DNA of 64,000 nucleotides from Escherichia coli (GCF_044324875.1 NZ_CP172185.1); one strand, 5' to 3'. Shown: positions 37,393 through 37,575, numbered from the stretch's first letter. Translations and numbers: made by a program. Notes: generated from the letters alone by a model not told the origin.

Positions 37393-37575
37393 GGGTGAGG
37401 CTTTTCCCTCACCCAAACCCTCTCCATGTGGAGAGGGGCCGCGCCGGATGCGGCGTAAACGCCTTATCCGGCCTACAAGAACGTGCAAATTCAACAAACT
37501 ACGCTTTGTTTTGTAGGCCTGATAAGCGTAGCGCATCAGGCAATAAGCCCCACCTTCTCCATGTGGAGAGGTGGG
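37393..37575. repeat. Composite REP/BIME cluster between mtlA and mtlD
   Basis: Hairpin gggtgagg/cctcaccc; 20-bp perfect palindrome ccctctccatgtggagaggg (37418-37437); two REP-like units (37443-37477, 37512-37542); second related palindrome (37549-37575). Confidence 0.8.

Follow-up and report, generated by a model that had tools for sequence, protein, structure and literature searches.

The spacer between mtlA and mtlD in this Escherichia coli genome is a mosaic of three repeat-derived layers, i.e., a BoxC core, a BIME-1 unit, and a second palindrome. The element deserving follow-up is the BoxC module beside mtlD, not the pair of like palindromes. On balance, we lean toward a reading in which the BoxC module, as stable RNA, would uncouple the fates of the mtlA and mtlD parts of the mRNA; the module and the mtlD leader would together be the selected unit, and the other layers would be dispensable. 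An earlier note on this DNA had described the spacer, about 228 bp long, as more structured than a simple BIME. The gene coordinates give 228 bp, and the spacer indeed holds, in addition to a BIME-1, an element of the BoxC family and an incomplete second copy of it. All of the elements listed in that note are present in the spacer where it placed them, and its sole wrong detail is a palindrome called perfect. Because the parts come from known repeat families, the composite is ordinary in kind.

The window, by which we mean the whole 64,000-nucleotide stretch that was analyzed, carries the mtl genes on its minus strand. The PTS mannitol transporter IICBA is encoded by mtlA (37582..39495; a 637-aa open reading frame matching NCBIfam NF011663 with 1324 bits), which ends in a TAA stop codon at 37582-37584. 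Mannitol-1-phosphate 5-dehydrogenase is encoded by mtlD (36205..37353; 382 aa; NCBIfam NF002648, 877.7 bits), and mtlR occupies 35618-36205. The spacer (37354-37581) lies inside the mtlADR mRNA and is 100% identical to that of strain 266917_2 and 93% identical to that of K-12. Read along the mRNA, the mtlA TAA is followed by 6 nt, palindrome 2, a Z1-type REP, a 36-nt linker, a Y-type REP, the BoxC core, the mtlD leader, and the mtlD AUG. The leader (37354..37379, minus strand; UAAAAACAUUGAUGAAGGUUAAUACU) is a conserved, AU-rich, unstructured stretch of 26 nt, which is thus the distance between the core and the mtlD start codon; it contains the Shine-Dalgarno sequence GAAGG at 37362-37366.

Two observations concern mtlD itself. 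A 443-aa open reading frame (36205-37536, minus strand) prolongs mtlD in frame across the spacer from an ATG inside the Z1 REP. Databases hold a 443-aa “mannitol-1-phosphate 5-dehydrogenase” (P0002), and some RefSeq genomes annotate a hypothetical protein under the spacer. We considered the longer frame as a real gene and judged it to be probably an annotation artifact, because its start lies within a REP and because it is impossible in the short spacer alleles. In addition, a published K-12 3′-end map records an RNA end antisense to mtlD, inside the gene at position 3775490 (minus strand) of NC_000913.3 (PMC7815308 supplement).

The BoxC/PIT/TMECO-family core is a GC-rich element of 59 nt (37380..37438, minus strand) that includes both a GC hairpin and palindrome 1. 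On the mRNA strand, it reads Y1 (CCCUCUCC, 37430-37437), a loop ACAU, R1 (GGAGAGGG, 37418-37425), UUU, R2 (GGGUGAGGG, 37406-37414), a loop AAAAG, Y2 (CCUCACCCC, 37392-37400), AG, Y3 (CCCUCUC, 37383-37389), and GGG. The GC hairpin reported in the earlier note is formed by GGGGTGAGG/CCTCACCC at 37392-37414, nested in an 18-nt imperfect inverted repeat (37383-37400/37407-37424). R1 has two possible pairing partners: with Y1 it makes palindrome 1, and with Y3 it makes part of a longer hairpin. Read off the sequence, R1 and R2 are also near mirror repeats of one another.

Several searches tie this core to the BoxC family. An nhmmer profile built from the 22 published K-12 BoxC copies (Petrillo 2008) had a single significant match in the window, at 37402-37438 on the plus strand (E = 1.2e-5). 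A second profile, from five K-12 inverted BoxC pairs, matched 37438-37383 (E = 3.1e-7), with nothing comparable elsewhere in the window. These K-12 pairs have the order Y1-R1-R2-spacer-Y2-Y3, followed by a terminal purine block, and their Y2-Y3 sequence is nearly that of mtl. The mtl blocks come in the same order, i.e., CCCTCTCC, a loop, GGAGAGGG, 3 nt, and GGGTGAGGG, then the inverted Y2-Y3, so the mtl element can be read as a compact inverted pair. It is intergenic and transcribed, like the rest of the family, and differs in having a central loop of just 5 nt and a last purine block cut to GGG. A covariance model of the mtl element gave ∼105 bits for mtl orthologs and 28-46 bits for the dispersed K-12 BoxC pairs. 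One other match to this model, at 61754-61828 (22.7 bits, 33% GC), was rejected as spurious, being AT-rich.

BoxC, PIT, and TMECO are the same family, with 23 copies in K-12, for which a strict TMECO motif, CCCTCNCCC N3-6 GGGNGAGGG N3 GGGNGAGGG, has been given (Holder et al. 2015, PMC4666352). This strict motif has no match anywhere in the 64-kb window. It fails at mtl because the Escherichia blocks are 8 nt long rather than 9, and it is matched by the orthologous mtl copies of many other genera. The sequence GGAGAGGGNNNGGGTGAGGG occurs exactly at 37406-37425 on the minus strand and with two mismatches at 37382-37401 on the plus strand. The mtl copy is missing from both published K-12 BoxC lists (Holder 2015; Petrillo 2008, PMC2267715). 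Judged by its profile matches and block order, then, the mtl core is an uncatalogued member of the BoxC/PIT/TMECO family. The BoxC/PIT family was reportedly also described by Bergler in 1992 and by Hoyne and Maher in 2000. The 65-nt mtl unit occupies one place per genome, and the family itself is dispersed, with 22-23 copies in K-12. The family has been described as a source of genomic instability (Holder 2015, PMC4666352), whereas the mtl copy is fixed in E. coli and keeps its position across the Enterobacteriaceae.

Palindrome 1, which consists of Y1, the loop, and R1 (37418-37437), is where the description as a 20-bp perfect palindrome goes wrong: it has 9-bp arms around a non-symmetric 2-nt center (TG), so that as RNA it would form an 8-bp stem with a 4-nt loop. 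The second, related palindrome that had been reported is present at 37549..37575 (minus strand). In the mRNA, palindrome 2 begins 6 nt past the mtlA stop and reads CCCACCUCUCC-ACAU-GGAGAAGGUGGG, an 11-bp stem with one bulged A and a predicted RNA fold of -20.2 kcal/mol (z = -3.95). The shared 12-mer CTCCATGTGGAG (ctccatgtggag) occurs exactly twice in the 64-kb window, at 37422-37433 and 37557-37568; with one mismatch allowed, about 0.2 matches are expected by chance, and 3 of 100 shuffles reach two. Both copies fall within a 20-nt direct repeat (37417-37436/37552-37571) of 95% identity (17/20 in K-12). This alignment makes palindrome 2 a partial copy, in direct orientation, of the first BoxC hairpin, comprising Y1-loop-R1 and the start of R2. 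The copied stretch amounts to ∼25 nt at the 5′ end of the module, and palindrome 2 was not picked up by the BoxC profiles.

How far, then, do the two palindromes recur and persist? As for other genomic copies, the 12-mer is found twice in the window, but the 65-nt core, like the 58-nt palindrome-2 region, occupies a single place per E. coli genome, and the kinship of the mtl core with the dispersed family is visible only by profile searches. In K-12 and most E. coli, palindrome 1 has the loop TCAC, whereas the window strain has ACAT; the 12-mer exists by virtue of the ACAT loop and is hence lineage-specific. This ACAT version is present in about 380-430 of 5426 E. coli genomes (∼7%). The proposal that like palindromes bracket a REP pair is right in that both are there, on either side of the REPs, but the arrangement is not the conserved part of the spacer, since it is absent from O157:H7-type alleles and from all other genera.

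The two REP-like units in opposite orientation, also noticed earlier, belong to a BIME-1 at 37443-37541. It is composed of a Z1-type REP (37513..37541, minus strand; GCCTGATGCGCTACGCTTATCAGGCCTAC on the mRNA strand; inverted repeats I3 and I6; hairpin of -13.2 kcal/mol), an L-type linker of 36 nt (37477..37512), and a Y-type REP (37443..37476, minus strand; GTAGGCCGGATAAGGCGTTTACGCCGCATCCGGC on the mRNA strand; inverted repeat I4; hairpin of -21.1 kcal/mol). We assigned the type names Y and Z1 by what we take to be their consensus sequences; the names L motif, BIME-1, and RIP, and the IHF consensus WATCAANNNNTTR, are presumably those of the BIME literature. An O157:H7 genome has a second copy near fliC with which the whole Y-linker-Z1 unit, including its linker, can be aligned, and a search with the spacer yields, at the median, 31 places per E. 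coli genome. Inverted Y and Z1 REPs, a linker homologous to that of another copy, and dozens of related places per genome are all as in a BIME-1/RIP. The Y REP scores 39.1 bits against the REP-derived Rfam family naRNA4, below the gathering score of 59.5; this was the best Rfam match in 35000-40500, where no family reached its gathering threshold.

This BIME-1 differs from others of its kind in three respects. Its putative IHF-like core, read off the linker sequence, is degenerate in the window strain, where ATTCAACAAACTA has two mismatches to WATCAANNNNTTR (the K-12 version, ATTCAACAAATTG, has one). On either side of the unit stands a copy of a ∼20-25-nt direct repeat made up of host (BoxC) sequence, an arrangement that to our knowledge is not a feature of BIMEs. 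Other E. coli alleles have additional Y and Z2 REPs at the mtl locus. The flanking repeat could derive either from BIME insertion or from a separate duplication. The O157:H7-type allele is exactly the product expected from deletion between the direct repeats that flank BIME-1.

Within E. coli, the BoxC core and the other two layers have different histories. The 65-nt core unit is present in 5404 of 5426 E. coli genomes (99.6%), always in single copy. The BoxC pair at lldD-trmL served as a control; it is intact in 2715 of the same 5426 genomes (50%) and is deleted in the window. There, at 24513-24529, 2 nt after the lldD stop, a lone GGGGGTGAGGGG block stands where K-12 has a 127-bp inverted BoxC pair, and several deletion classes of this pair occur among the 5426 genomes. 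The mtl spacer itself comes in several lengths, whose shares were estimated from evenly spaced rows of the ranked match list. The K-12/window type (228/229 bp) accounts for ∼64% of genomes, and the O157:H7 type (94 bp), which has neither palindrome 2 nor BIME, for one sixth of the sampled rows. An ATCC 11775 type with extra Y and Z2 REPs (318 bp) and the FDAARGOS_1256 allele (520 bp) together make up about one eighth, and the DCE7 allele (217 bp) is rare.

In the 94-bp allele, the CCCTCTCC direct repeat contains the junction. Escherichia albertii and the representatives of two other Escherichia species also have palindrome 2 and a BIME, which indicates that the long form is old within the genus; judged from these sequences, the short form may have arisen by loss of the DNA between the CCCTCTCC repeats. 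Both layers are confined to Escherichia, and their presence differs between strains. Since alleles without palindrome 2 and the BIME are common (e.g., O157:H7), neither layer is essential.

Looking beyond Escherichia, we scanned species-representative genomes with the MtlD N terminus and listed the 80 closest species, which sampled Citrobacter, Salmonella, Enterobacter, Klebsiella, Raoultella, Leclercia, Kosakonia, Cedecea, Buttiauxella, Siccibacter, Franconibacter, Mangrovibacter, and other genera. The published-BoxC profile matches directly upstream of mtlD, in one orientation, in 79 of these 80 species. The orthologs share the layout Y1-loop-R1-(TTA/CTA/TTT)-R2-variable loop of 4-25 nt-Y2-AG-Y3-GGGTAAAAACATTGATGAAGGTTAATACT-ATG. 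In genera other than Escherichia, identity to the window is 94% in the BoxC stems, 88% in the MtlD protein, 87% in the leader, and 53% at mtlD four-fold sites. In the 79 aligned sequences, the interval from the core to mtlD is free of insertions. Every lineage-specific insertion falls on the mtlA side of the core; these comprise REPs particular to a genus, ERIC-like elements, tandem repeats, additional BoxC units, and the BIME of Escherichia, so that the mtlA-side stretch looks like an insertion hot spot. The presence of the core at one spot in almost all related genera suggests that it has a useful role.

Some details of these sequences are worth recording. Other repeats lie in the mtlA-side spacer of L011, L018, L020, and L070, of L030, and of L074 and L081, about 1-130 nt past the mtlA stop in the first four. 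Among the repeats found on this side in other genera are an ERIC-like element of ∼127 nt, a second BoxC unit, genus-specific REPs, and, in Enterobacter sp. kpr-6, a ∼45-nt unit present four times in tandem. In L043 (Leclercia adecarboxylata NCTC13032) and L079 (Mangrovibacter plantisponsor), the mtlD frame has ∼40% amino acid identity to the window in an ungapped codon-by-codon comparison, which suggests an indel or an assembly error; in L043, the mtlA end also reads differently. In a more distant metagenomic relative, whose MtlD is 64% identical, the spacer is 71 nt long and has an unrelated hairpin and no match to the covariance model.

It could be that selfish or neutral repeats, both REP/BIME and BoxC, have piled up in a tolerant gap and are of no use to the mtl operon. 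Much of what we see fits such a view: BIME-1 and palindrome 2 come and go among the 94-, 217-, 228/229-, 318-, and 520-bp alleles, unrelated repeats sit at the same place in other genera, and dispersed BoxC copies are unstable between strains (as at lldD-trmL) and have no assigned function (Holder 2015, PMC4666352). However, the same view sits poorly with a core that is 94% identical across genera when synonymous sites are at 53%, that is fixed in 99.6% of E. coli genomes, and that persists in Salmonella (L041, L056). We consider neutral accumulation likely for BIME-1 and palindrome 2 and unlikely for the core; as an account of the whole spacer, it is an unlikely one. The conservation of the core could alternatively come from a role at the DNA level, or from gene conversion by other BoxC copies where a genome has many of these. 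Salmonella has been reported to lack strict TMECO copies (Holder 2015, PMC4666352), and the survival of the core in such a genus weakens gene conversion as the cause.

The preferred reading, a BoxC module that would act as stable RNA, draws on the predicted structure of the spacer transcript. Folding the spacer, a check that the earlier note had proposed, gave -113.7 kcal/mol, far more stable than shuffled sequences (z = -6.95). The BoxC core alone folds at about -37 kcal/mol in two nearly equal-energy forms. In the long hairpin, where R1-R2 pairs with Y2-Y3, 93.5% of alignment cells are paired, compared to 33-57% for slid controls, and this value is also above all shuffled controls. RNAalifold predicts the same helix. 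Changes on both sides of a pair were found in 13 cells at 5 of the 18 pairs; the core is highly conserved, so covariation is thin, and these cells are not independent, as related sequences inflate the counts. Compensatory changes include TTC..GAA in Klebsiella oxytoca and Raoultella, CCA..TGG in Siccibacter colletis, GGGTAAGG/CTTACCC in Tenebrionibacter, and GGGAAAGGG/CTTTCCCC in Franconibacter. The first hairpin retains 8-12 bp in most taxa, while its loop sequence varies freely; in Raoultella, both of its arms are lengthened together, and compensatory changes occur in other lineages.

It is tempting to see the two folds as a conformational switch, in which R1 would pair with either Y1 or Y3, perhaps as set by ribosomes ending mtlA, and thereby tune mtlD translation or cleavage of the leader. 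Y1 and Y3 are both conserved, and the two forms are near-isoenergetic across 78 taxa: for the element alone, the long hairpin is favored over the Y1-R1 form by 2.9 +/- 2.3 kcal/mol, and with the leader and the mtlD start included, the mean energies are -43.6 and -43.5 kcal/mol. That the first stable helix starts no more than 15 nt past the mtlA stop in 72 of 78 taxa would also suit ribosomes as the trigger, though this distance was judged without a null model. However, the folds do not differ where a switch should act. The mean unpaired probability over 71 taxa is 0.54 versus 0.53 for the Shine-Dalgarno sequence and 0.57 versus 0.59 for the AUG, so we rejected a switch that hides the mtlD ribosome-binding site; with equal predicted accessibility, the alternative folds have no obvious regulatory output. 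Moreover, Y1 is 140 nt from the stop codon in Escherichia. The three-block symmetry is common to all BoxC inverted pairs and so may be a family trait rather than the mark of a switch. We regard a conformational switch as distinctly unlikely.

The position of the first helix is an observation in its own right. In those 72 of 78 taxa (median distance of 5 nt, again as judged without a null model), a stable helix stands close to the mtlA stop whichever element provides it. The pattern recalls a reported effect of REPs near stop codons: Liang, Rudd, and Deutscher are said to have found in 2015 that a gene is expressed less when a REP lies no more than 15 nt past its stop codon.

Could the element instead work as DNA? 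A BoxC triplex or cruciform, together with a BIME-1 that binds IHF or gyrase, might act on supercoiling, replication, or recombination. Such a role would be in keeping with the near mirror symmetry of R1 (GGAGAGGG) and R2 (GGGUGAGGG), with the IHF-like core in the BIME-1 linker, given the consensus that we assume, and with a length polymorphism bounded by the CCCTCTCC direct repeats. TMECO oligonucleotides do form stable triplexes in vitro, but no triplex was found in double-stranded DNA or in vivo (Holder 2015, PMC4666352). With blocks of 8 nt, the copy in the window falls short of the strict motif, and the IHF core has two mismatches. The non-Watson-Crick cells in the stems are also skewed, with 31 G.U on the mRNA strand versus 5 A.C (i.e., G.U on the other strand), counts to which related sequences contribute as non-independent cells. 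A role in duplex DNA predicts no such skew, and the bias favors an mRNA fold over a symmetric DNA structure. A DNA-level element is thus, in our view, very unlikely.

The attenuator that had been proposed, i.e., a full or partial transcription terminator between mtlA and mtlD, is most improbable: the untranslated gap does contain several GC-rich hairpins, and behind palindrome 2 comes the weakly U-rich GCUUAUUG, but there is no U tract behind any spacer hairpin, no terminator-like or promoter-like site on either strand of 37250-37700, and mtlD must be expressed whenever mtlA is, given the toxicity of mannitol-1-phosphate. Earlier assays of canonical BoxC/PIT copies found no promoter activity, no terminator activity, and no effect on RNA polymerase (Holder 2015, PMC4666352). 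These results argue against an attenuator and are silent on RNA decay. A published K-12 3′-end map of cells grown without mannitol, in which the operon is uninduced, has no end in the spacer (PMC7815308). We also considered MtlR acting on the spacer and rejected it; a 2026 paper has MtlR acting on CRP at the operator and at the membrane, and a text search of it for the intercistronic region or hairpins was negative (PMC13421365). Our literature searches on the mtl intercistronic region, on RNase III or RNase E sites, on lists of REPs near stop codons, and on transcripts of the induced operon found nothing.

Our preferred reading, that the BoxC module would set the fates of mtlA and mtlD mRNA apart, can be put as follows. 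None of the elements would terminate transcription; rather, they would line the untranslated gap with stable hairpins, one after another. These hairpins would block 3′-to-5′ exonucleases and so protect the mtlA segment, and they would shield the AU-rich, unstructured mtlD leader from pairing with upstream sequence. Each of the two cistrons would in this way have a stability and a level of translation of its own. BIME-1 and palindrome 2 would at most modulate this effect, as dispensable additions. The RNA-processing or stability role suggested in the earlier note is plausible, and draws indirect support from the predicted fold and the sequence comparisons, for the mtlD-side half of the spacer only.

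This proposal builds on three things: how REP hairpins behave between cistrons, the fixed link between core and mtlD, and the toxicity of mannitol-1-phosphate. REP hairpins stabilize upstream mRNA in the malEFG and hisJQMP operons. The mtl gap resembles the intercistronic REP stabilizers at malE-malF and hisJ-hisQ in being untranslated, within an operon, and filled with stable hairpins, the first of them 6 nt past a stop codon. It differs in that the stop-proximal hairpin is palindrome 2 and not a REP. As for toxicity, mannitol-1-phosphate made by MtlA is toxic unless removed by MtlD (PMC11784389). A more specific proposal, which we make tentatively and consider rather doubtful, is that the core would be a cis-acting RNA element kept by the Enterobacteriaceae to set mtlD relative to mtlA and thereby avert a toxic build-up of mannitol-1-phosphate.

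If that is true, the mtl core would be the first BoxC/PIT/TMECO element with a function, and it might be the ancestral copy of the dispersed family. If the spacer has no measurable effect, the finding is an ordinary stack of known repeats. Although known for some thirty years, these repeats still have no assigned function, and the mtl copy is a natural place to test them. It is the opposite of an unstable family, at one site across the Enterobacteriaceae and more conserved than the adjacent protein. Furthermore, the E. coli spacer alleles (94, 217, 228/229, 318, and 520 bp) constitute a natural series in which repeat content can be set against the balance between a transporter and its detoxifying enzyme.
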